NCBI RefSeq assembly: GCF_965641715.1
Contig: NZ_OZ282453.1
Direction: 5' to 3' (one strand)
Length of the DNA: 64,000 nt
Source of the DNA: Escherichia coli
Lineage (GTDB): Bacteria; Pseudomonadota; Gammaproteobacteria; Enterobacterales; Enterobacteriaceae
Shown: in pieces, positions 1-57,791 of the stretch
Numbering within the stretch: position 1 is the first letter of the stretch
Layout: each line of letters starts with the position of its first letter
Translations under genes and position numbers: made by a program
The notes under the pieces: model-generated
What the model saw: the letters and a program-made list of their open reading frames with translations, nothing else
Told to the model about the DNA's origin: nothing
The model's database searches: none

Positions 1-164
1 CGTATAACACAGCAGCAGGCGGACGCTGCAGATGATTATTCTGCGGTGACATATATTCATCCCTGAAATGTATTAATGAAATAAACGATATTTTACGCGC
101 AATAAATGTTTGGCGCATTAGTTGTTTGAGCGAAAAATATCTGGAAAGCAGATCACAGTAAATA

Positions 165-200
165 AAAAAACCTGCTGGTGAGGCAGGTTCTTTTATTTAC
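165..200. terminator. Hairpin (7-bp stem AACCTGC/GCAGGTT) flanked by an A-run on one side and a T-rich tract on the other; possible bidirectional intrinsic terminator
   Basis: Seen in sequence: aaaaaaaCCTGCtggtgagGCAGGttcttttattt. Confidence 0.4.
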
Positions 201-482
201 TACTTTGATGTTAAGTTACTGATACTGCAACATGGCATCTCAACGAGCGAATTATAACCACCTCGCGACCGTGTTGCAATTAAGATAATGAGATTTATAA
301 TCCTGACTGTTGGGAAGTTGCGCCGGATCGAACCCATTTCAAGTCCTGGCTACCGGACGGGTGGTGCCGCAGGTAGTGCTCTGATCCGGAGTGCAACATG
401 GCGACTCAACATACGTAAACCAGTATCGACAGGCAGCGTAAGGGTAAGGTGCTGGTGTTGCGCTCCTTAATAAGGAGAGCGG

Positions 483-4700: not shown

Positions 4701-7700
4701 TTATTCAAACAGGGCTTCAATATCGTTAATTAGCTCGCTGGCGGTGATGGCATCGAGTACGGAGAGCTGCGCTTCCTGTATTGAATTACTCCCCCAGCCA
4801 TAGCTTTCCGCTTTGCCTTCCCATAGCCACAGCTTGCTTAAGAGTTGCTCGGCACTCAGTTCGGCTGGCGACATGCCTACCGCAAAGCCTTCATCGATTT
4901 CCATGATTAACGACCAGCGGCCCAGAGGTTTGATCATCCAGCCGATCCAGCCTCCATCCTGTGGTTCGCCCTTTATCCAGCCTTTATTCGCCAGCCCCAT
5001 TACCCGACCGCTCGGGCATTTTCTGCCTGCCCAGCGGGTCAGTTCGCTGGCATTGCGCTCGGTTTCTGTCAGGGCGTAACTGTTACGGTCGAGCTGGCGG
5101 AACGGCGGTAGCAGTTCGTAGTCGGCAAAAAGCTGCCCAAATGCGGCGGCATCCGTCGGTGATATTTCCAGAACGTGAGGAATACCAACAGAGATATCGC
5201 CTTCCGGCAGGGTGAAAAGATCATCGTCAGCGGTGCTGTAGCTGTTATCTTCCGCTACGCGGAAGCACGTCAGTAGCTGGTTTTCGGTGCTATAAACGCC
5301 CCAAATCAGACGGCGGGTTAAGTGGTGTACCAGTGGATGTTCAACCAGGAAGAGCTGAAAGTTTTCTGGCGACCAGCGGCGACGCAGGCACATGGCGGAT
5401 TCCAACCTTGCTACCTGCTGGGCGGCGACGGTACGCGCATCTTTTTTCAGCAGTTTGTAGCGGTTAACAGCATCGTTCGCCTGTGATTCATCATCGCTTT
5501 TGTTTGGTTTGGGCAGGTCTTTCAGACGGCTGCCGGAAGCGTCACGCACAAACGGTTTTAAGGTTTCATCAAAGCTGACGGTGAACTGGCGTGGGCCGAA
5601 ATCCAGCAGCAACGAACCGTTATCATCCAGACTGAGATCCGGTGCTAACCGATCTTCAAGCTCCGCCACTGTCAGTTCGCGACTTTCAGCAATGTCGGCA
5701 ATTTTCTCTTTCGCCCGCTCCTGTAAAGCTTTGAATTTCAGTTTCTGAGCAATGCCGTTAAGCTGCATCAGAGCGATATCACTACCGATAGCGGCGAGAA
5801 TATCCAACCCAACGGTGGCGCGTTTATGCTGAGATTCGCCAGGCCAGGCGCGTATTAATGGCGTCAGTTTGCGAGCGGTGTCGTCGTTACCGAGAACACA
5901 TAACGCAGTGAACGCCCAGCTTTCTTTCGATGGTGCACCCGTAGTCAGCCAGGCGGTAAACAGATCCCAGGCAAATTCAGCCAGTGAGTCGGCGGTACAG
6001 GCATCTTTCACCTGCAATAATCCCGGATACAGCGCCTCTTCCTGAGGGAAGCGGAGCATTTCACCGAGGTGGAGGAGGGCGTTATCTGGCAGTACCTTGC
6101 TGCTATTTTTGAGTTTTGGGCGAGTCCATAATGGAGGTTGATAAAACAACGGTAAAGGGGGGATTTTCGCCGGGTATTTACCCACAGGACTGTTGTCGTT
6201 ATTTTTATTTTGAGTTTCCCAGGGCGGCGAGACTAGTACCATTGGTAGAATTTCTGAGTTTGCAAAATCTTCATTGCGACTATTCAGCAATTGCTGACAT
6301 TGTTGCAATAAATTTGCCGCTTGCGACGATAATCCGATGACTAATTTTTCGACCAATAAAGGATTTGCATTAAGTAATGAAACCAGCAACGTATGTTTGC
6401 GTTTATCATCTTTTTTTACCAATTCTTCGGCTAATGCCGCTATCGTGGCAGAAGGAAAATTTTCGGCACTTTTTATTAGTCGTTCATAACAGCGTTTATT
6501 AGTATCGGCGGCTTCGATGAGTGCCGTAATGGCCAACGGATGATTAATACATTTCAGTACGTCACCGCAATTATCTTCTTCAGCATAGGAAGCCAGGCGA
6601 GCCAGTGCCGCTATACCTTGTTCCCGTAATACCGTAGCTGACCAACTGGCACCATAGGTGTTAAATACATCAATGTATTGATAGTTCTCCAGTATTTCGA
6701 GCGTGAATGGATCTGTCGCTACCAGTTTCAACATTTCAAGTTGTGGAACATCTGCGACCTGGTGTAAACGATGTACGATCTCATGGGCCACTTCGGGTAT
6801 TTCTGGCATTAAAATGGCAATTAACGGTTGGCGATAGAGTGATATATCTGGTAACGCAACGAGTAATTTTGCAATGCAATTTTGCCATACTTCTTCTTCT
6901 GCTAGTGATAAATGTTTACGCAGACGTAAACTAAATTTGTCGTTATTCCTTCTATAACTGTCCTTGCTGCTATCTGCATAATTAATAAAGAAAGTCAAAT
7001 GTTCATCTTTATAGTCAAAATCGAAATCAATTTGCCACCAGAAGATGACAGTTTCAGTTGCGTATTCGATACCGAAGGTGCTTACAATTTCATCCAGCAA
7101 CTCGGATGAGGTTTCATCATTCCAGCCCTGACAAAAACATATTTCCAGAAAAGTAAGTACCGCCATAGTACGCGCGGGTATCTCAGTCTTTTGGGCCTTA
7201 ATTAAGCTGATTGCCTGGCTAATCGCATCAGCCCATTCATCAGAGCATGAGCTGTAATCGAAAGTCAGATTTTTATAATAATGATAAGTACGATTTGCCA
7301 ATCGGGAAATTAAATTTTGTTTTTCGGGTTTGGTTGGTTTTTTAACTGGCTCTCCCGGCCAAAGGCGGTGGCTGAGGGCATGGCGGGCAATATTCGGGGG
7401 AAGAATAATGGGATCGTTGTCTGCCAGCCAGGGTAAACCATTAGTTGCTGCCTGGCGATTTATTGAGGCTTTTTCCTCTGTGACCAGGACTTTCTTTGCT
7501 GAGGCATCATGTGAGTGAGCGTTAGCGTCTACTTGCTCCACATACCCCTTCTTCACCTTCTCCGCAATCAGCTTCAGTTCCACTTTTTCCGCCGCCGCAG
7601 CATCTGCAAAGCTTTTTACCTGACTTTGCCCGTTAGTGCCGACTTTACCCCAGGTTATATGCAGCTCGTTTCCCTGCTGCTCCACCGCCCAGAATTTATG

Positions 7701-7733
7701 TGATTTTTCGTCCTGATAAATATAGGTTTTCAT
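4701..7733 (-). CDS. Large paralog (1010 aa) with N-terminal WGR-like domain and DUF4132-like C-terminal region
   Basis: Track ORF; N-terminus MKTYIYQDEKSHKFWAVEQQGNELHITWGKVGTNGQ is WGR-like; C-terminal half aligns by eye with its neighbours. Confidence 0.65.
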   Translation of the reverse strand: MKTYIYQDEKSHKFWAVEQQGNELHITWGKVGTNGQSQVKSFADAAAAEKVELKLIAEKVKKGYVEQVDANAHSHDASAKKVLVTEEKASINRQAATNGLPWLADNDPIILPPNIARHALSHRLWPGEPVKKPTKPEKQNLISRLANRTYHYYKNLTFDYSSCSDEWADAISQAISLIKAQKTEIPARTMAVLTFLEICFCQGWNDETSSELLDEIVSTFGIEYATETVIFWWQIDFDFDYKDEHLTFFINYADSSKDSYRRNNDKFSLRLRKHLSLAEEEVWQNCIAKLLVALPDISLYRQPLIAILMPEIPEVAHEIVHRLHQVADVPQLEMLKLVATDPFTLEILENYQYIDVFNTYGASWSATVLREQGIAALARLASYAEEDNCGDVLKCINHPLAITALIEAADTNKRCYERLIKSAENFPSATIAALAEELVKKDDKRKHTLLVSLLNANPLLVEKLVIGLSSQAANLLQQCQQLLNSRNEDFANSEILPMVLVSPPWETQNKNNDNSPVGKYPAKIPPLPLFYQPPLWTRPKLKNSSKVLPDNALLHLGEMLRFPQEEALYPGLLQVKDACTADSLAEFAWDLFTAWLTTGAPSKESWAFTALCVLGNDDTARKLTPLIRAWPGESQHKRATVGLDILAAIGSDIALMQLNGIAQKLKFKALQERAKEKIADIAESRELTVAELEDRLAPDLSLDDNGSLLLDFGPRQFTVSFDETLKPFVRDASGSRLKDLPKPNKSDDESQANDAVNRYKLLKKDARTVAAQQVARLESAMCLRRRWSPENFQLFLVEHPLVHHLTRRLIWGVYSTENQLLTCFRVAEDNSYSTADDDLFTLPEGDISVGIPHVLEISPTDAAAFGQLFADYELLPPFRQLDRNSYALTETERNASELTRWAGRKCPSGRVMGLANKGWIKGEPQDGGWIGWMIKPLGRWSLIMEIDEGFAVGMSPAELSAEQLLSKLWLWEGKAESYGWGSNSIQEAQLSVLDAITASELINDIEALFE

Positions 7734-7745
7734 TGTTAAATCCTT

Positions 7746-10700
7746 TTAATCAAACAGTGATTCAATGTCGTTAATCAGCTCGCTGGCGGTGATGTCGTCG
7801 AGCATGGAGAAAGTGGGTGAGGATTGTTTACCATAGCGATCATAAGGGGCGGTGATTTTTACGCTTTCGACAGGCAGCAGGTCGCTATACCCCGTTTCGC
7901 CATAAATTAATGAAAAAGGTTCCGTTTCAAGTTCGAGAGCACCATAAGGGGTAGATTTGCGCATCGCATAAACGCTGCCGCTTTCTTCCAGACGTTGCCA
8001 GCCTCGGCGTTCCAGCCCGACAATGCGTCCGGCCTGGCAGAGACGTCCGTTCCAGCGTGACAATTCATGGACATTACGTTCGTTATCAGCAAGGTGGTAA
8101 CTACCACGTTCGAGCTGTTGGAAAGGGGGAAGCAGTTCGTAATCAACGTAAATTTGCCTGAATGCAGCGGCGGATTCAGGGGGGATTTCCAGCACATGCG
8201 GTATACCGATGTTTCCTGCTGGCAGCGTGAATAACTCATCCTGCGCATCGCTGTAAGTGCTGTCTTCTGCCACGCGAAAACAGGTGATAAGAGCGTTTTC
8301 ATCGTTATAAACCCCCCATAACAGCCGTCGGGTTAAGTGACGTACCAGCGGATGCTCCACCAGAAACAGGCGGAACTGCTCTGCCGTCCAGCGTCTGCGC
8401 TGGCACATAGCCTGTTCCAGACGGGTAATATGCTGGCTGGCGATAGCACGAACATCTTTTTTCAACTGTTTGAAGAGATTAACTGCGTCAGTTGCCAGTG
8501 TTTTATCATCGCTCTGGTTTGGCTTAGGTAAATCTTTCAGGACTTTGCCGTTTGCATCGCACACTACAGGTTTTAAGGTTTCGTCAAAACCAACGGTGAA
8601 TTTGCGGGGGCCGAAATCCAGTATCAGCGAGCCACTGCTATCAAGCCCTAAATCTGGAGCCAGGCGGTCTTCCATTTCAGCCATAGTCAGCCCACGGTTT
8701 TCAGCAACTATGTTGATTTTCTCGCGGGCATGTTCCTGTAATGCTTTGAATTTAATTTTTCGCGCGATGCCATTAAGCAGCATTAGCGCAACATCGCTGC
8801 CAATATCAGCTAATACATCCAGCCCGGACACCGCCCGTTTATGCTGGGATTCCCCAGGCCAGGCGCGGATAAGCGGGGTTAATTTACGCGCGGTGTCGTC
8901 ATTGCCTAAAATCCCAAGCGAAGTAAATGCCCAGTTTTCTTTTGCGGGTGCGCCAGCTTCTGTCCAGGCGGTATACAGATCCCAGCCAAATTCAGCCAGT
9001 GATTCGCGGGTGAAGATTTCTCTAATGATATCCAGCCCAGCGTAGGCGGTAATGTCGCGAGGAAAGCTCAGCATAGTGCCGAGGTGGCGCATAGCGTCAT
9101 CTGACAGAGGCAGGTTGTTACTTTTAAGCCGTGGTCTGCGCCATAAGGTGAACTGATAAAAGCCGGGCAGTGGGGCGATTTTAGCGGGATATTCTTCCAG
9201 CGGCTCGCTATCAAATAATGTTGCCAGCGCAGCTAAAACATCAGGTTGGTTATACCCCTGGGCGATTTCTTCAATCGTTTCTCGCTGGTTTAAATTCACC
9301 AGCAGACGAAGCGCCTGGCGGGCACAATCACGATCTTTTCCTTTTTTGCCCAAGGCCACAGGAAGTAGCCCGGCGGCAGCATGGCGTGGGAAGTTAGCCA
9401 GCCATTTTCGAGCATCTTCAGCAGACATTTTTTTCTGTAATCGCTGCGCCATCGGTAATGCTAATTCGCTGACGCCCAGGAAGAGGGTGAATATCCATAA
9501 CTGTTGTGGCTTACGTTGCAGACATTTCATAAACGCAGGAATGGCCGCATCACCAAAAATCGCCAGAATTTCTCTCTCGCCGGAGAATTGCTCTTCATTA
9601 ATTATTTGATTGAGAAAAGAAATAGCATGCTGAGTGGGTAGGAAGCAGAGCGCGTACAACTGCCAGTGTCTGCTTCCTTTGTTATGGTATTGCGCAAACT
9701 CGGCTTTCAGCGCGGGGAAATCGAAACGTAACAGGGCATCAACTGCGCTTTGTGGCATTATTTTTTTTTCGTATTGTTCTTCTCCGGTTCTGCGCCATTC
9801 CTTAAACCCCAGTCGCCAAAGGATTTGCTGTTCTGGCGTTAAAGGGATGAAAGACGTTTCCCAGCGTTCTTTTTTTATCGGTGGCAGGTCGGTAAATAAG
9901 GTTTGCTGTGATGCCTGATATTGCGCGATTTCACTGAATCTGGATATGTCAGTATGACTGATTAACTCTGTAATTCCTGGTGTGATATCCGTGACGGCAG
10001 GAATGGGAAGTACCGGTAAATCAAATACGGGTATGACATTCTTTTTCTTATTTATTACCCACGGTGGAGCGACAAGCAGCTCCGGCAACATATCCACAGT
10101 GGCATATTCACATTCTTCAGCTACTGGCAGCGGACGACATTCAGATAAGATGCCTGCCGCCTTAGCATTAACCCAGGGAATGACCTCGCATACTAACTCT
10201 GGCGTGGCGGTAATCAGTTTGACAAGCGCTTTACGCCACTCATTATTTTCATGTATTGCCAGCAAAGTAGCATAAGCGGCAATAGCCGCAGCGGGATGTT
10301 TTTGGCAGGCTTTGCTTAAGTATTCCAGGTGCTTTTTCTTGCCATTTACACCGAGGATCAGAATTTGAATCGCATCCGGGTGATTCGTTTTCCATAGCCA
10401 TTTGACAAGATCTTCAGTCTCGCTGATACGCTCGAAGAGATAAGTGGGATTGTCAGAATGCTCTTCCGTAAACTCAAGAAGTATCCGGCTTACACCGCGC
10501 ACCCCATTATTTGCCAGCAACATTGCCAGATAAGCGCGAAAATCATGATACAACGGTGGGAAGTCGTATTTTTCTGCTGTAGTCAGAGCGGCGTCATCGG
10601 TTACCACCAGTCTTAACCAGGTCATCGCCGGAACGTTTTGATCTGCATAACGTAGCGCCATAGCATTGGCAATATCCGGGCGTTCAGGGAGCAGTAACGC

Positions 10701-11543
10701 CGCAAAAGGTTGTCGTGCTGGGGATAGCGAGGGAATAGCAGCGAGTACTTTATCTACACAGCGTTGCCACTCATCTTCTGAAGCGAGTGAAAGATGATGA
10801 CATAGACGTTGATGCCAACTCGGTAGCGATTCTGCTTCGTGATTAGGTGGAATGATGGTGGTTACTGCGCCTTTTACTGGTTTATATTTGAGTTGAAGAG
10901 CGAGAAGGGCGATTTCAACGGCACTTTCCAGACCACAGCGAATGACTAAGTCATCGACCAGTTCATCTTGAGAGTAAGAGTTCCAAAAGCCCCAGAGCAA
11001 TGCTGCATCAGATTGCGCACTCCCTGTCGGTTGATTACCCTTAACTCGCATTTGTAACTCAGCAAAAGCCTGCTGCCAGTTTTCTGGATAAGAGCGGTAA
11101 TTGTTGTCGGGATCATATGCCCTGGTGTTATTCGCGATGCGCTTCCATATTTGGCCATCTTTGTACAGATAATTGATCTCTCTGGGGCGAGAGCGATGAG
11201 GAAAAGCAAATCGATTAATATCGTCAGTGACCGGAATGACTGCATCATCAGCCAGCCAGGGGCGTTGGTTTTTACTCTCAGGGGAAGTTTCAACTTCAGG
11301 AGTGGCTTTGGTAATGGGGGGGATATGCACGTTTGCTGAAGCATTTTCCACATAGCCTTTTTTCGTTTTCTCCGCGATAAGCTTCAGTTTCGCTTTTTCC
11401 GCTGCTGCAACATCAGCAAAATTTTTTACCTGGCTTTGCCCTTGGGTACCAACTTTTCCCCAGCTGATATGCAACTCGTTTCCCTGCTGCTCCACCGCCC
11501 AGAATTTATGTGATTTTTCGTCCTGATAGATAAAGTGTCTCAT
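7746..11543 (-). CDS. molR: MolR-like large protein (1265 aa), intact; WGR-like N-terminus plus DUF4132-like region
   Basis: Track ORF 1265 aa next to metG; N-terminus MRHFIYQDEKSHKFWAVEQQGNELHISWGKVG; in K-12 this gene is, as I recall, a pseudogene. Confidence 0.6.
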   Translation of the reverse strand: MRHFIYQDEKSHKFWAVEQQGNELHISWGKVGTQGQSQVKNFADVAAAEKAKLKLIAEKTKKGYVENASANVHIPPITKATPEVETSPESKNQRPWLADDAVIPVTDDINRFAFPHRSRPREINYLYKDGQIWKRIANNTRAYDPDNNYRSYPENWQQAFAELQMRVKGNQPTGSAQSDAALLWGFWNSYSQDELVDDLVIRCGLESAVEIALLALQLKYKPVKGAVTTIIPPNHEAESLPSWHQRLCHHLSLASEDEWQRCVDKVLAAIPSLSPARQPFAALLLPERPDIANAMALRYADQNVPAMTWLRLVVTDDAALTTAEKYDFPPLYHDFRAYLAMLLANNGVRGVSRILLEFTEEHSDNPTYLFERISETEDLVKWLWKTNHPDAIQILILGVNGKKKHLEYLSKACQKHPAAAIAAYATLLAIHENNEWRKALVKLITATPELVCEVIPWVNAKAAGILSECRPLPVAEECEYATVDMLPELLVAPPWVINKKKNVIPVFDLPVLPIPAVTDITPGITELISHTDISRFSEIAQYQASQQTLFTDLPPIKKERWETSFIPLTPEQQILWRLGFKEWRRTGEEQYEKKIMPQSAVDALLRFDFPALKAEFAQYHNKGSRHWQLYALCFLPTQHAISFLNQIINEEQFSGEREILAIFGDAAIPAFMKCLQRKPQQLWIFTLFLGVSELALPMAQRLQKKMSAEDARKWLANFPRHAAAGLLPVALGKKGKDRDCARQALRLLVNLNQRETIEEIAQGYNQPDVLAALATLFDSEPLEEYPAKIAPLPGFYQFTLWRRPRLKSNNLPLSDDAMRHLGTMLSFPRDITAYAGLDIIREIFTRESLAEFGWDLYTAWTEAGAPAKENWAFTSLGILGNDDTARKLTPLIRAWPGESQHKRAVSGLDVLADIGSDVALMLLNGIARKIKFKALQEHAREKINIVAENRGLTMAEMEDRLAPDLGLDSSGSLILDFGPRKFTVGFDETLKPVVCDANGKVLKDLPKPNQSDDKTLATDAVNLFKQLKKDVRAIASQHITRLEQAMCQRRRWTAEQFRLFLVEHPLVRHLTRRLLWGVYNDENALITCFRVAEDSTYSDAQDELFTLPAGNIGIPHVLEIPPESAAAFRQIYVDYELLPPFQQLERGSYHLADNERNVHELSRWNGRLCQAGRIVGLERRGWQRLEESGSVYAMRKSTPYGALELETEPFSLIYGETGYSDLLPVESVKITAPYDRYGKQSSPTFSMLDDITASELINDIESLFD

Positions 11544-23567: not shown

Positions 23568-24364
23568 AACGAATTAACGCTCTGACGATTGCCGGTACTG
23601 ATCCGAGTGGTGGTGCGGGGATTCAGGCCGATCTTAAAACCTTCTCGGCACTTGGCGCTTATGGTTGCTCAGTTATTACTGCTCTGGTGGCGCAAAACAC
23701 CCGTGGCGTACAGTCGGTGTATCGCATTGAGCCTGATTTTGTCGCTGCCCAGCTCGATTCGGTGTTCAGCGATGTGCGAATCGACACCACTAAAATCGGT
23801 ATGTTGGCGGAAACCGATATTGTTGAAGCGGTGGCAGAACGGTTGCAACGTTATCAGATCCAAAACGTGGTACTCGACACCGTTATGCTGGCAAAAAGCG
23901 GCGACCCACTGCTTTCACCTTCGGCGGTTGCTACGCTGCGCAGTCGATTATTGCCACAGGTTTCATTAATAACGCCAAACTTGCCCGAAGCTGCTGCCTT
24001 GCTCGACGCGCCACACGCGCGCACCGAACAGGAAATGCTGGAACAAGGGCGATCGCTGTTGGCGATGGGCTGTGGCGCAGTGCTAATGAAAGGTGGTCAT
24101 CTGGATGATGAGCAAAGCCCGGACTGGCTGTTTACCCGCGAGGGTGAACAACGGTTTACCGCACCGCGCATTATGACCAAAAACACCCACGGCACTGGTT
24201 GTACACTCTCTGCGGCGTTGGCTGCACTACGCCCGCGCCATACAAACTGGGCTGACACCGTACAGGAGGCAAAAAGCTGGCTTTCATCGGCGTTAGCACA
24301 GGCCGACACGCTGGAAGTTGGTCACGGTATTGGTCCGGTTCACCACTTCCACGCCTGGTGGTGA
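23564..24364 (+). CDS. thiD: Hydroxymethylpyrimidine/phosphomethylpyrimidine kinase
   Basis: 266 aa; N-terminus [31 protein letters not shown] typical of ThiD/PdxK kinases. Confidence 0.9.
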
Positions 24365-24419
24365 GCACCGTACTATAGCTGCTTTGGTTATTGTCAGCCT
24401 TTGGCACTGACATTCAGGG

Positions 24420-38519: not shown

Positions 38520-38837
38520 ATGAAAAAGATAGCTGCTATATCATTAATTAGTATTTTTATTATGTCTGGTTGTGCTGTGCATAATGATGAGACAAGTATC
38601 GGTAAATTTGGTCTTGCATATAAAAGTAATATTCAGCGTAAACTCGATAACCAATACTACACCGAAGCCGAAGCTTCTTTAGCCAGGGGCAGAATATCTG
38701 GTGCAGAAAATATAGTAAAAAATGATGCAGCCCATTTCTGTGTTACTCAGGGCAAAAAAATGCAGATAGTTGACCTGAAGACAGAAGGTGCAGGATTACA
38801 TGGCGTCGCTCGTCTGACATTCAAATGTGGAGAGTGA
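38520..38837 (+). CDS. yegR: Small lipoprotein YegR-like (105 aa)
   Basis: MKKIAAISLISIFIMSGC lipobox; AT-rich; start chosen at the internal ATG of the track ORF. Confidence 0.6.
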   Translation: MKKIAAISLISIFIMSGCAVHNDETSIGKFGLAYKSNIQRKLDNQYYTEAEASLARGRISGAENIVKNDAAHFCVTQGKKMQIVDLKTEGAGLHGVARLTFKCGE

Positions 38838-38995
38838 GAATATTTTTTGGTAAGCGTCAAACATGCGCGTTCTGGTTGTGCTTAGCCGGAACCTGTGCGA
38901 GCACGATGCCAATAAGTGAAAGGCATCGTGCTATGAAGGGAGATTCTATCGATGTGGTCAATGGAAGACGGTGACCAGGGATAGGGCTTATGCAT

Positions 38996-39022
38996 AAAAA
39001 ATAAGCCCGTGTAAGGGCGTTT
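38996..39022. other. P2-type integrase core/attachment sequence (prophage boundary on the int side)
   Basis: Seen: aaaaaataagcccgtgtaaggg, matching the P2 att core AAAAAATAAGCCCGTGTAAGGG as I recall it; lies about 80 bp from the int stop. Confidence 0.65.
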
Positions 39023-39101
39023 ATATACCCTTACAACAGGGGCTTTCAGCGGTGCAATGCGGGTTTGCGCGGCACGCAAGACCACTGAAAGCCATAATAA
39101 A

Positions 39102-40115
39102 CTACCCTACTGTGGACACTGTGTGGACACTCTGAGAGCCAACACCACCACGTAGAGGATTAAGCGTTATCGCGTCCTGTAGGTACTCAGGGGCGAAGTG
39201 CGCATATGTCATTGTCTGCTCAATTCTTGAATGCCCAAGTATTCTCTGAAGCGTGATAATGTTGCCTCCGTTTATCATAAAGTGCGTGGCGAAGCTGTGC
39301 CGCAATGCGTGCGTAGCCTGACCCGGTGGTAGGTCGGGTTTCAGCTCCTTCATTAGCCGTCTGAACGCGGGATAGTTAGCATCAGTGAACAGATAGCCAC
39401 GCTTACCCGTTGTGATCATTGTTGCCAGTTCCTCGGATATAGGAACGGTTCGCGGCTTGTTGGTTTTTGTCTTAACGAAAGTGACGCGATTTTGAATGAT
39501 ATTTTCCGCTTTCAGTTTTGCTGCCTCACTCCATCTCGCGCCGGTGCTAAGGCAAAGAATCGCAATTTTTTTATTATCACCGTCCACTTTTGACAGCAGA
39601 AGCGCGATCTCCTCTTGCGTCAGGTAGCCGGTTTCTGGCTTATCCTCTTTGAGTCTTTTAAGACCTCGGAAAGGATGCTCCCCGAAAAATAGCTCCGCAT
39701 CTATCAACGCGGTAAACATCCCGCTAAGACACGTTAAATCACGATTTATACTCGATGGCTTGATGCCTTGAGAACGCCGCACAGTGCTGTATTGGCTTAT
39801 CAATGACTTAGTAATCTGAAAGGCACAAGGGTCACTGGTTATCTTTGTGAACAACTCTAACTTGCCCAGGTAATCTCGGCCGTGAGTTTCATACTTGCCT
39901 TTCAGCTCCCACCAGATTTTTGTTAGCTCTGACAGATGCCGCTTATCTGTCGGTTTCGCCAACCATTTTTTGTTGTGATGGTTGTACTGGGTATGCTTCT
40001 CGAAAGCGATAGCTTCGCTTTTCTTGTCAAATTTCCTGCGGATGCGCTTTCCGTTGCGCCCTGCAGGTCTAATGTCCACTTCATAACGACCATCATCGAG
40101 CTTTTTAACAGACAT
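39102..40115 (-). CDS. int: P2-type tyrosine integrase
   Basis: About 337 aa from MSVKKLDDGRYEVDIRPAGRNGKRIRRKF; C-terminal catalytic motifs HALRHSFATHF and LGHSRIEQTMTYAHF. Confidence 0.9.
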   Translation of the reverse strand: MSVKKLDDGRYEVDIRPAGRNGKRIRRKFDKKSEAIAFEKHTQYNHHNKKWLAKPTDKRHLSELTKIWWELKGKYETHGRDYLGKLELFTKITSDPCAFQITKSLISQYSTVRRSQGIKPSSINRDLTCLSGMFTALIDAELFFGEHPFRGLKRLKEDKPETGYLTQEEIALLLSKVDGDNKKIAILCLSTGARWSEAAKLKAENIIQNRVTFVKTKTNKPRTVPISEELATMITTGKRGYLFTDANYPAFRRLMKELKPDLPPGQATHALRHSFATHFMINGGNIITLQRILGHSRIEQTMTYAHFAPEYLQDAITLNPLRGGVGSQSVHTVSTVG

Positions 40116-40211: not shown

Positions 40212-40508
40212 TTAGCCAGTTTTCTGGTCTGAGTGGGGTGACGTTGTTGTCTGCTGCCCAAAGTGCGCGAGAGCCGGTGCAATCTGCCCAGCTTCTGGTG
40301 ATATCGTCTCAGTCATGAACCACATGGTATATTTTTTGAACTGTGGATGATTCAAAATCTTCATCACTGCTTGTATGCCCATATCTTTTACTCCCTTCTC
40401 ATAACTAGAAAGAGAGCTATACGGAACTCCAGTTAAGTCACTGAATTCTTTTCTATTCATACGTTCCGACTCACGCATGATGGCCAGCTTCTCGTTGACG
40501 GGTATCAT
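40212..40508 (-). CDS. C: Immunity repressor C (HTH)
   Basis: About 98 aa from MIPVNEKLAIMRESERMNRKEFSDLTGVPYSSLSSYEKG; divergent from cox. Confidence 0.75.
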   Translation of the reverse strand: MIPVNEKLAIMRESERMNRKEFSDLTGVPYSSLSSYEKGVKDMGIQAVMKILNHPQFKKYTMWFMTETISPEAGQIAPALAHFGQQTTTSPHSDQKTG

Positions 40509-40643: not shown

Positions 40644-40919
40644 ATGAATAGGGTCATTGAGAGCGCGAGCGACGCGGTTCCGTATCAGGAGTTTGCGCGT
40701 CTTATTGGTAAAACCCCTGCTGCTGTCAAAGGGATGATTGAGAAAGGCAAACTACCGATAGTTGAGATGACTGATCCGCAGTCTACAAGTGGGAGAGCAG
40801 GGGAATACCGGGTATATCTGCCAGCATGGAACAAAGGCATGAAGATGGCCTATGACAGTCGCCCTAAAGAAATTCGTGATGGTTGGTTGATGTGGTTGGG
40901 ATTAGGTGAACCAGCATAA
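40644..40919 (+). CDS. cox: Cox excisionase/early-promoter repressor
   Basis: 91 aa; strongly P2 Cox-like by recollection (AVPYQEFARLIGKT...GRAGEYRVYLPAWN...IRDGWLMWLGLGEP). Confidence 0.85.
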   Translation: MNRVIESASDAVPYQEFARLIGKTPAAVKGMIEKGKLPIVEMTDPQSTSGRAGEYRVYLPAWNKGMKMAYDSRPKEIRDGWLMWLGLGEPA

Positions 40920-45533: not shown

Positions 45534-47090
45534 ATGATTAAGGGTATAGGTCTTCAAAACTTCAGGAGCTTTGTCAACAAAACGTTTATTGATTTAAAAC
45601 CAATTACAGTATTTGTTGGTAAGAACAGCAGTGGTAAAAGTTCCCTATTGCGCACATTTCCTTTACTTCGTCAATCTGTAGAAGAAAATACTACTGGCCC
45701 AATACTATGGTATGGGAGATATGTGGATTTTGGCGATTTTACAGATGTACTTTCCCGAAACTCTGAAAAAAAAGAAATTACGTTTAGTTTTTCACTCTCA
45801 ATTCCGCCAGAGGTTTCACAAAGATATACATATTATCGTTCTACTGATTTAGCAAAGCAACCAACAGATATTGAAGCAGAGTTAACTGTTTACTCTAAAG
45901 ATAAAAAAACAAAAACGAAAACGATTAAGCTTATATTGGCTGATTTAACAATATTTATTTCAATGGATGAGAGTAGTAATGTTAAATTACTCATTGAATC
46001 AGATGATAAAACAATAGAGCGTGATGGGATAATAGCTAAAAATCTTGGGCAGTTCATACCAAATCTAATTTTGAAGGGTAAGGAAGACAGTCCTCCTCCA
46101 AGCACATCATTCTATTTGAGACATTCTAGGCATGACAGGGCGTTAGAATTGTCATTTATTGATTCAGCGGCGAAATATATAAAGAAATATTTCCATACTA
46201 AATCTGATATAAATCAAGTGACAGAGGCATTCAAAAGAATTGGCTTTATACCCAAAGCGTACGCTAGTAAATTAGTTGCTTTTCTATTTAAGGAACAAAA
46301 AGTTTTTAGTAGAAACTTTGAATTTCAACATGATGAAATAATGAATGAGTTATATCCATTTATAATTGGATGGAATATTAATAATCTTATAGATATAATA
46401 AATACATCCTTGTCAGATTCATTCAGAAATGTAAAGTACATAGCTCCACTGCGTGCTACATCAGAAAGATTTTATCGTTTTCAAGATTTACAGGTTAATG
46501 AGATAGATCATACTGGTTCCAATCTTGCAATGCTTTTGAATTCATTAAGACCGGCTGATAAATCAAAATTTGAAGATTGGACAAAGTTAAATTTTGATTT
46601 CATTATCAAGGTTGAACAAAGTGGCTCTCACTTTGCAATTTTAATAAACACCGGTGAAAATAGTGAGAACTATAATGTTAGTGATATGGGGTTTGGTTAT
46701 TCTCAGGTTTTGCCGATAGTTACAGCCATTTGGCTTGAGACAGAACGTCGTGCTACCACGGTTAGAAAACCTATAACATTTATCATTGAGCAGCCAGAAT
46801 TGCATTTACATCCGTCATATCAGCATAATTTAGCAAGTATTTTTGCAAAAGTAGTAACTAAAGCAAAAGAAAATAATGTAGATTTGAAGATAATTTTTGA
46901 GACACATAGCCAGACCATGATTGAAGCACTTGGTGAATATATTGAGGAAAATGAAAGTCTTTCACAGGATGATATTTCAATACTGGTATTTGAAAAAGAT
47001 GATAAGCAGCAGACTATAGTTAAGAAATCTTATTTTGACGAGAATGGTTTCCTAAAAAATTGGCCGGTTGGCTTTTTCTCGGGTAAGTAG
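45534..47090 (+). CDS. Cargo gene 1: ABC/OLD-type (AAA_15/AAA_21-like) ATPase, about 518 aa
   Basis: Walker A GKNSSGKSS; Walker B/D-loop FIIEQPELHLHP; H-loop-like IFETHS; AT-rich; SD GGAG upstream of the ATG chosen at MIKGIGLQNFRSF. Confidence 0.75.
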   Translation: MIKGIGLQNFRSFVNKTFIDLKPITVFVGKNSSGKSSLLRTFPLLRQSVEENTTGPILWYGRYVDFGDFTDVLSRNSEKKEITFSFSLSIPPEVSQRYTYYRSTDLAKQPTDIEAELTVYSKDKKTKTKTIKLILADLTIFISMDESSNVKLLIESDDKTIERDGIIAKNLGQFIPNLILKGKEDSPPPSTSFYLRHSRHDRALELSFIDSAAKYIKKYFHTKSDINQVTEAFKRIGFIPKAYASKLVAFLFKEQKVFSRNFEFQHDEIMNELYPFIIGWNINNLIDIINTSLSDSFRNVKYIAPLRATSERFYRFQDLQVNEIDHTGSNLAMLLNSLRPADKSKFEDWTKLNFDFIIKVEQSGSHFAILINTGENSENYNVSDMGFGYSQVLPIVTAIWLETERRATTVRKPITFIIEQPELHLHPSYQHNLASIFAKVVTKAKENNVDLKIIFETHSQTMIEALGEYIEENESLSQDDISILVFEKDDKQQTIVKKSYFDENGFLKNWPVGFFSGK

Positions 47091-47092
47091 TT

Positions 47093-48205
47093 ATGTTGAT
47101 TAATATCGAAAATGCGACACCTGAGAAGGTGCTAAATAACTCATTTGCCATAGCGGTTGAAAATATACTTCGGGCATTCGCTGAACAAAAACACTTGGTT
47201 ATAGGGGCAAGGGTTTTTTTTAAAACTATTATCAATGATCAAAGCGGGCTTTATAGCCTTTCATCAAAAAGTTACGCGCAAGAGGCTTTGTCGGGTCTAA
47301 CAGAGTACTATGCTATCTTGGATCAGGTCTCATTTTATGTATCTGTCGACTTTAATATTAGTGATAAATCATTTAAATGGGTTCAGATCGGTGAATCTTT
47401 TAAATTTGTTTGTGGTCCATTGTATTTTAATGACTCGGCACAATTGCAAAAAACGAAAATAGTATGTGAAAATCCTTTGGATTCTGATTTTTTTAAGGTT
47501 ATAGCGGCTCATTATGCCGAAGGTATTAACTTATCTCGCTGCGAAATGGGTTTTATCGCTCTAAATGGCGGTGGGGGCAGTACTAAGGATATATTCGAGC
47601 GTGCAATTCAAAATAATGAGATAGTTTTTTGTATTGTGGATAATGACAAAAAACATCCTGGAGCCCCATTCGGAGGTACTTGCTCACATTTTTTGGGCTC
47701 ACAAATTACTCGCTCAGGTTTCGTGGAGATTTTAGATGTACATGAAATAGAATCTCTAGTTCCTTTATCGACAATTGAAGATGTATTAAGAAGTCAAAGT
47801 CAATTGCAACAAAAAGAAAAATCTCTCATTTTCTTTAAGCATCTTTGCTCCGTAGATGAATCAGTAAAATTTTATATTGACCATAAAAAAGGTTTTGATT
47901 TTAAAACAGCCCTTGAACTCGATCGAAAACATGGTGCATATTGGCGTCCGATATTAAAGAAGCTTGATATAAAATATGATTGTGAGTATATCGAATCAAA
48001 ACGTTGTAGCTGCAACGCTGCTTGTGTAAGTTATGATGGTTTTGGAGAGAATTTGCTCAGCAATACATTGAAATATATACAAAAGGGAAGTTTAAAAAAA
48101 TATAATCCTCACCTAACACCAGTGCTTTCTGATAAATGGTATAAGTTAGGTAAGAATTTCTTTAGTTGGAGTTGTGGTCCATATAAAAAAGCAAGGGTTG
48201 GTTAA
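47093..48205 (+). CDS. Cargo gene 2: 370-aa partner protein, possible TOPRIM/DUF4435-like effector with C-terminal Cys cluster
   Basis: ATG 2 nt after the cargo-1 stop; hydrophobic strand plus DxD (IVFCIVDNDKKHPG); CEYIESKRCSCNAAC cluster; AT-rich. Confidence 0.65.
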   Translation: MLINIENATPEKVLNNSFAIAVENILRAFAEQKHLVIGARVFFKTIINDQSGLYSLSSKSYAQEALSGLTEYYAILDQVSFYVSVDFNISDKSFKWVQIGESFKFVCGPLYFNDSAQLQKTKIVCENPLDSDFFKVIAAHYAEGINLSRCEMGFIALNGGGGSTKDIFERAIQNNEIVFCIVDNDKKHPGAPFGGTCSHFLGSQITRSGFVEILDVHEIESLVPLSTIEDVLRSQSQLQQKEKSLIFFKHLCSVDESVKFYIDHKKGFDFKTALELDRKHGAYWRPILKKLDIKYDCEYIESKRCSCNAACVSYDGFGENLLSNTLKYIQKGSLKKYNPHLTPVLSDKWYKLGKNFFSWSCGPYKKARVG

Positions 48206-57038: not shown

Positions 57039-57791
57039 CTAACGTTCGAATATTATTATCACCCCAAGAGTGAGATGTATATGATCTTCTATTTGTTCAT
57101 ATTCTTCTTGGGTGTAAGAAAGTTTAGCTAATTCTTCTGTTGCTGAAAAGACATCAATGGATACTTGGACGCCTGATGGGATTTCATTTTTTATTTCATT
57201 AATGTATTTGTTGTATTTTCTTGTGATTAGTATTATTGCGCGATCTCTGTCGACGGTGGTTGAGCAATATCGATTGGATTTGCTGTTGTTATTGTGGAAT
57301 GATTCGAATGCGCAATTGAGGGCAAGTCTTAGATTTGATGATCCTGTATTTCCAGTGTGATTGAAGTATTCTATGTTTCTTCTTAAGTCTTCAAATAGTT
57401 TTGCCTTATTTGGATTGTCCCCTTTAACTTCAATAGCACATTTTGGATAATCAAACCCATTATTATTGCCTAGTATGGCAATGTCTATCCTACCTTTTCT
57501 GGTTGTGTTTGCTTTGATTCTTAGTATTTGCCTTGAAAATATTTTCCCCGGCGTTAGTCTTTTTGAAAATGGCACCGTTGAAGTTATAAAATCCCCTGTA
57601 TCATATTCAAAAATTATTTTCTCATCATCTATGTGAAAATTTTTACTATCAAGTAGGGCTTTGCCTATTGATACAGTAGCGACGTATTCGGTATTGATTT
57701 TACCACCAGAACTGAAATTCATTAAACGTGTGATTTTAGCTGCATTGGACATGCCATCCTTTACTGCTGTGATTATTTCGTAATTGTCCAT
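57039..57791 (-). CDS. Cargo gene (moron), 250 aa, candidate PD-(D/E)xK-fold nuclease
   Basis: Opposite strand to the late genes; AT-rich; motif RIDIAILG...CAIEVKGD (D...E-x-K). Confidence 0.6.
   Translation of the reverse strand: MDNYEIITAVKDGMSNAAKITRLMNFSSGGKINTEYVATVSIGKALLDSKNFHIDDEKIIFEYDTGDFITSTVPFSKRLTPGKIFSRQILRIKANTTRKGRIDIAILGNNNGFDYPKCAIEVKGDNPNKAKLFEDLRRNIEYFNHTGNTGSSNLRLALNCAFESFHNNNSKSNRYCSTTVDRDRAIILITRKYNKYINEIKNEIPSGVQVSIDVFSATEELAKLSYTQEEYEQIEDHIHLTLGVIIIFER

Follow-up and report, generated by a model that had tools for sequence, protein, structure and literature searches.

The junction between yegR and int

In the window, by which we mean the whole stretch of 64,000 nucleotides of the Escherichia coli contig NZ_OZ282453.1 that was analysed, a P2-type integrase gene lies beside the chromosomal gene yegR, at the locus where K-12 carries a P2 remnant. 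This raises the question whether the short sequence between the two genes is the point at which a P2-like prophage meets the chromosome, as an earlier note made from the sequence alone had proposed, and whether that prophage is complete. Our analysis indicates that positions 38996-39022 are almost certainly the core of attL, at which the chromosome meets the int end of a P2-like (Peduovirus-type) prophage. The site is locI, the classical P2 site at the 3' end of cyaR between yegR and yegQ (trhP). The features around the junction are as follows (positions of the window, strand given where there is one):

38520-38837, + strand: yegR, 105 aa, with a lipoprotein-like N-terminus, so named at the corresponding place of several annotated RefSeq genomes
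38949-38995: B arm of attL and attB on the yegR side, a decayed P2 P arm by alignment to the P2 P arm
38996-39017: 22-bp attP/attB identity, equal to P2 core positions 1-22 and, read as reverse complement, to the final 22 nt of the cyaR terminator region
39018-39022: core positions 23-27, CGTTT (phage type), against AGATT in attB, attR and P2
38996-39043, - strand: terminator-like element on the int sense strand, with a hairpin at 39005-39043 (variant 20-nt block plus core) and a U tract at 38996-39004
39023-39106: P' side spacer, the counterpart of the Cox-binding region of P2 attP by alignment to the annotated P2 Cox site
39107-39133: P' arm CTACTGTGGACACTGTGTGGACACTCT, made of two direct repeats of the Int arm type; the block is the same as in P2 and extends over the last codons of int
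39102-40115, - strand: int, P2 Int-type tyrosine integrase, 337 aa, intact and colinear with P2 Int (ATG-started product 39105-40115)

The phage P2 record AF063097.1, in which the P arm, IHF site, core, Cox site and P' arm are all marked, was used as the reference. Its attP core is annotated at 24356-24382 and reads AAAAAATAAGCCCGTGTAAGGGAGATT. The full 27-bp equivalent in the window reads AAAAAATAAGCCCGTGTAAGGGCGTTT. Upon alignment, positions 1-22 were exact and 25 of the 27 positions agreed overall; the two mismatches (positions 23 and 25) are on the side towards int, where the window has CGTTT and P2 has AGATT. The identity with attB therefore spans 22 bp instead of the 27 bp of P2. The 22-mer, AAAAAATAAGCCCGTGTAAGGG, which had been taken for the P2 att core, indeed equals positions 1-22 of the annotated core, and it is present as a single copy in the 64-kb window (38996-39017, + strand) even when 3 mismatches are allowed.

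The distances are those that the earlier note had described. Between the 27-mer and the int stop codon (39102-39104, - strand) there are 79 bp, or 84 bp if the 22-mer is taken as the core; about 80 bp had been stated. On the other side, the core starts 158 bp beyond the end of yegR, so that the junction lies just past this gene and is followed by the P2-type int.

Arms of the attachment site and the integrase

The layout is that of P2: about 80 bp separate the core from the int stop, this interval contains a putative cox-box region, and P' repeats overlap the 3' end of int. P2 and the window share the first 22 of the 27 core bases, the P' arm repeats and the target at the yegR/cyaR 3' end, in a system that in P2 consists of attP, attB at locI, Int, IHF and Cox. 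Over its 27 nt, the P' arm block did not differ from the annotated P2 P' arm in the alignment, and it fits the arm repeat consensus of the P2 type, tgTGGaCa (PMC3448106). The region between core and P' arm has diverged more. Six cox boxes with the consensus TTAAA(G/C)NC(A/C) are found at P2 attP (PMC3936717), and motifs resembling them are partly kept at 39023-39106 (GGGGCTTTCAG, GCGGGTTTGCG and CTGAAAGCC); these are putative sites for a Cox protein that is 72% identical to that of P2.

Directly after the 22-mer, a block of 20 nt has been replaced relative to P2 (CGTTTATATACCCTTACAAC versus AGATTTAGGGTGTCACCAGT), and homology resumes beyond it. On the int sense strand the replaced block pairs with the core to form a hairpin, which is followed by CUUAUUUUUU. 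The fold energy of this element was -21.8 kcal/mol (z = -2.6), whereas the P2-type attL, with -9.7 kcal/mol (z = 0.1), has no such hairpin. The genuine cyaR gave -18.9 kcal/mol (z = -3.9). The hairpin resembles the CyaR terminator, and its most likely role, as predicted from the sequence, would be that of an intrinsic terminator for int. An Rfam search (E <= 10) gave no partial CyaR match at attL.

At the protein level, the window Int is most similar to P2 Int (83.6% identity over 336 aa, gap-free, with the divergence evenly spread). Two Pfam domains were found, Int_N and Phage_integrase (E = 2e-24 and 4e-22), and the catalytic motifs ARW, HALRHSFATH, GH and Y are conserved in the alignment with P2 Int. 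Identity to P2 is 60% for the C repressor and 43-84% for the structural proteins. The phage is a diverged relative of P2 with a slightly different attP, and should not be called P2; its attachment site is described more exactly as the 3' end of the sRNA gene cyaR. The P2 Int/att system itself is known already and sits here at its known preferred chromosomal site; the occupant is a P2 relative new to characterisation.

No sequenced virion or free attP with the CGTTT variant of int and att was found. A megablast of the int/att region against sequenced phages gave no match except a P2-type prophage record that includes host flank (82.6%). Only two viral contigs matched, and both start at yegR; they were rejected as free attP sequences, being prophage predictions with host flank and not circular phage genomes. 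Klebsiella phage Kp4868-1 (Int 76% identical) was rejected as a comparison, since its record ends at the att site and the core falls outside it.

The cyaR locus in other genomes

In K-12 MG1655 the order of the locus is trhP (yegQ), cyaR, the cryptic prophage PR-X with ogrK and the pseudogene yegZ (D'), and yegR, in agreement with the P2 remnant named in the earlier note. The yegR-side flank is the same as in the window, and the junction starts with the same core bases, except that the A run before them is one base longer; it reads AAAAAAATAAGCCCGTGTA and is joined directly to the D' fragment, leaving the core truncated. The K-12 junction is a deletion that runs from inside the attL core into gene D. 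About 630 bp is kept there (attR, ogr and part of D), in contrast to the window, which has attL and at least 25 kb of intact phage genes. Where K-12 joins a truncated core to D', the 22-mer of the window is complete and continues into the P' arm and int.

The empty site was found in strain AR434, where yegR and its flank (...GGGCTTATGCAT) run into AAAAAATAAGCCCGTGTAAGGGAGATT and ACACAGG..., followed by cyaR and yegQ. Rfam recognised CyaR on this site with 100.7 bits, and the core forms the CyaR 3' end. The yegR-side flank of the window is the same sequence as that of the AR434 site.

Occupation of this site by P2-type phages has been described before: 'cyaR RNA' is a listed insertion site, with Wphi2 in strain W, ogr-D' in K-12, P2*B in strain B and an empty site in Crooks (PMC3032704, Table 2). 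The P2-type prophages of O157:H7 TW14359, W (Wphi2) and B (P2*B) share site, orientation and flank with that of the window. A P2-type attL, with an AGATT core and the P2 P' spacer, was found in TW14359 and in four further strains that were sampled, and the Int of TW14359 is 100% identical to P2 Int. The sampled P2-type prophages at cyaR thus differ from the window in an Int that is identical or nearly identical to that of P2, in the full AGATT core and in the P' spacer, and the lineage of the window is rarer. Among 5426 complete E. coli genomes, a P'-arm-like continuation was present at this junction in 811 and the int variant of the window in 37; the K-12-type deletion junction was found in 358.

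Two relatives, L001 and L022, were 98-99% identical to the window across the junction and have the same attL (CGTTT). In both, a second core lies 32,507 bp away. It has AGATT and is located in the 3' end of cyaR next to yegQ, where Rfam again gave 100.7 bits for CyaR.

Three other sequences at this locus deserve mention. In E. coli E69 (CP089930.1, 2424-2555 of our extract L011), neither the usual yegR flank nor a P2 P arm is found to the left of the cyaR core; what adjoins cyaR here is another element or the result of a rearrangement. In a contig of a 'Collinsella sp.' MAG (L016, JAIJJM010000051.1), an attR that includes a P2-type ogr terminator and the P arm stands beside an E. coli-type cyaR; in a contig of a 'Citrobacter sp.' MAG (L012), a P2 attL comes with a yegR flank of the E. 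coli type. Both contigs are probably mis-binned E. coli DNA.

Content and completeness of the prophage

From the core to the end of the window, the sequence follows the gene order of P2. Besides int, the following features were used:

38996-64000: visible part of the P2-like prophage, in P2 gene order, ending within FI
40212-40508, - strand: C-type immunity repressor, 98 aa, with an HTH, 60% identical to P2 C
40644-40919, + strand: cox, excision directionality factor and Pc repressor, 91 aa
45444-45462, + strand: cos-like 19-mer GGCGAGGCGGGGTAAGCGT, 3 mismatches from P2 cos

The order is int, C, cox, orf78, B, orf80, orf83, A, a gene for a DUF3850 protein, the cos-like site and cargo, and then Q, P, O, N, M, L, X, holin, lysozyme, lysB/C, R, S, tin, V, W, J, I, H, G and FI. 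Using tblastn of the P2 proteins against the window, 27 matches with 43-84% identity were obtained in P2 order, including C, Cox, Orf78, B, Orf80, Orf83, A, Orf91, Q, P, O, N, M, L, X, LysB, R, S, V, W, J, I, H, G and FI, the last being the tail sheath gene that is cut at the window end. The PGAP annotation of the relatives agrees with this gene content and order. These homologues, together with the shared yegR-side flank, bear out the view that a P2-like prophage occupies the locus of the K-12 remnant. With no more than 60% identity between its C repressor and P2 C, the phage is probably a heteroimmune relative of P2.

The other junction had been placed outside the window, and neither a second core (22-mer search with 3 mismatches) nor cyaR (cyaR search) was found in the 64 kb; in the relatives it lies about 32.5 kb from attL. 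By comparison with L001, corrected for a difference of 541 bp in one cargo slot, attR is to be expected around position 71,000, some 7 kb to the right of the window end. The last 7 kb or so, from within FI through ogr and attR, thus lies beyond the window, and the completeness of this copy would follow from its relatives, in which FII, E, T, U, D and ogr are present. The visible prophage is collinear with that of L001 (97.9% and 91.9% DNA identity, the former over 21 kb). None of the complete E. coli genomes exceeded about 93% identity over the tail region, so that the right end can be deduced only through these relatives.

The alternative that has to be weighed most seriously is that the attL is genuine and the prophage behind it is defective or truncated, like that of K-12 and merely larger, instead of a complete and excisable phage. 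Exactly this locus carries the K-12 deletion derivative, whose type of remnant junction recurs in the 358 genomes mentioned above, and the right end is outside the window. In one relative of about 99% identity the D gene is frameshifted, which shows that members of the lineage can be defective. Against this, the ORFs across the visible 25 kb have the lengths of those in the annotated relatives and are syntenic with P2; the cos-like site is present, int, C and cox are intact, and the prophages of the relatives are full length with a core at either end. We consider a defective prophage unlikely.

Between the cos-like site and the portal gene Q lies a two-gene cargo (45534-47090 and 47093-48205, + strand). 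The first gene encodes an AAA_15/DUF3696 ATPase with NsnB, PDC-M55A and AriA as its best PADLOC matches, and the second a 370-aa partner with a weak PADLOC match to PDC-M55B. From these matches, the pair at 45534-48205 is a candidate anti-phage system in the old/tin hotspot of P2. A Tin homologue (57042-57791, - strand), 55.6% identical to P2 Tin and recognised by PADLOC with E = 6e-93, occupies the slot between S and V, the place of orf30 in P2; the nearest relatives have a 328-aa hypothetical protein or a DUF262 protein there. At the far end, between ogr and the P arm, the relatives carry a gene for a trypsin-like peptidase with its own terminator (34682-35533 in L001 and 7130-7981 in L022).

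Strand exchange and the fossil P arm

The two relatives with both junctions display a reciprocal pattern. Their attL consists of the bacterial left flank with CGTTT and their attR of the phage P arm with AGATT, which places the strand exchange inside the 22-bp identity. By analogy with P2, a heterobivalent tyrosine Int would bind the arm-type repeats in the P and P' arms as well as core-type sites around the crossover, and Int together with IHF would recombine attP and attB within the shared 22 bp. The products would be attL (yegR flank, core, P' arm and int) and attR (ogr, P arm, core and cyaR). For the window copy the predicted attR would run from the P arm (...ATGTGGTCAATGTGTGGACA...) through AAAAAATAAGCCCGTGTAAGGGAGATT into cyaR. 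As the phage brings along the final 22 nt of the cyaR terminator region, the gene is rebuilt intact at attR. Excision would require Int and Cox, the latter acting on the cox-box region between core and P' arm. Protein binding, IHF dependence and excision are extrapolated here from P2, and we infer that the window copy has the same attR as its relatives and is competent for excision. P2-type phages are not known to be SOS-inducible, and the excision to be expected is spontaneous.

In rebuilding cyaR the phage is similar to those that integrate in the 3' ends of tRNA, tmRNA or sRNA genes, where the attP core duplicates the 3' part of the RNA gene and the gene stays intact. It differs from the tRNA type in that the target is the terminator of an Hfq-dependent sRNA and in that only 22-27 nt is duplicated.

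The flank on the other side of the core has a phage history of its own. In the B arm (38949-38995), the first Int arm-type repeat of the P2 P arm, TCGATGTGGTCAATG, is kept as an exact 15-mer, followed by GTGACCAG, and the second repeat is degenerate. In E. coli a 16-bp gap covers part of the P2 IHF site, and Escherichia sp. MOD1-EC7003 retains a full-length version of the relic. Local alignment scores of the relic to the P arm were 38-44 (38 for the window B arm), compared with 13±2.2 for shuffled sequences, none of which (0/2000) reached these values; native Kluyvera cyaR flanks scored at background level. The sequences concerned are 38949-38995 of the window, 575-660 of L017 and 2609-2659 of L003. 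Since the yegR-side flank is a degenerate P arm, the 'empty' attB of Escherichia would itself be a fossil, the decayed attR of an older P2-like prophage, a reading that is well supported by these alignments.

One may speculate about functional consequences of the fossil P arm and of the terminator mimic. The retained arm repeat might help to make locI the preferred P2 site, and the CyaR-terminator mimic might end or stabilise the int mRNA, possibly with an Hfq-binding 3' end. We regard it as rather improbable that the relic and the mimic act in this way.

The presence of old att debris bears on a second alternative, in which the core is purely chromosomal, either a fossil att or a terminator, and the element with the adjacent int was integrated otherwise. 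That the flank is a fossil P arm and that the core is part of a terminator-like hairpin would fit this view, which is nevertheless contradicted by the comparison of attL, attR and attB: to the right of the 22-mer the bacterial cyaR sequence gives way to phage P' sequence running without a break into int, the relatives show the reciprocal switch at attR, and empty sites join the same flank straight to cyaR. We consider it very unlikely, and 38996-39022 is best read as the core of a recombined attL. A chance resemblance of the 22-mer, short as it is, to the P2 core is effectively excluded by the shuffled sequences (mean of 0.01 matches per window with 3 mismatches allowed) and by its P2-like position relative to int and the P' arm.

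The chromosomal side of the junction

Left of the junction the window is ordinary chromosome, with yeh genes, metG, apbC, the fimbrial genes yehABCD, rcn and thiMD, and, nearer to the junction, yegT-X, fbaB, the gat operon, gatR, yegS and yegR. YegR had no Pfam or PADLOC match. We considered whether yegR might have been cargo of the ancestral prophage, which was not supported: tblastn against 50,697 phage records gave only two short or partial records, namely ON470606.1, a prophage record that includes host flank, and AY639599.1 (2.4 kb). A tblastx of the interval from yegS through yegR to the core against P2 gave nothing apart from the P-arm relic. In ON470606.1 (L006) and in the IMG/VR UViGs L008 and L009, the records of P2-like prophages at this site include the host genes gatR, yegS and yegR. 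The boundaries of these public records overshoot attL, and for this reason alone 'YegR' is listed among phage proteins.

Between yegR and the fossil P arm, at 38899-38933, lies a perfect 11-bp inverted repeat (AGCACGATGCC...GGCATCGTGCT) without a U tract; it stands where P2 has the ogr terminator.

Further observations concern the more distant chromosome. At 164-237 (- strand) Rfam gave a match to the OrzO-P antitoxin sRNA (88.8 bits); its unit of about 500 bp is present in two tandem copies in the relative L021 and apparently in one in the window. At 4701-11543 (- strand), in the yehI/yehH region, two DUF4132-type ORFs of 1010 and 1265 aa were largely unalignable to the compared E. coli relative by megablast, and the yehABCD region was only about 88% identical to it. 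Parts of the chromosomal backbone are therefore rather different in sequence from that of the compared strain.

Significance

The left boundary of a P2-like prophage of about 32 kb is fixed at position 38996 of the window. The boundary call is correct and useful; it would not surprise a specialist and has little significance beyond correct annotation. For annotators, cyaR is to be expected on the far side of the prophage. The strain carries a rarer P2 relative with cargo slots that hold candidate anti-phage genes. The attP/attB identity of 22 instead of 27 bp, together with the reciprocal attL and attR, provides a natural map of the range in which the P2-type crossover can take place, and the fossil P arm adds a small evolutionary footnote: a 'bacterial' attachment site can itself be phage debris.
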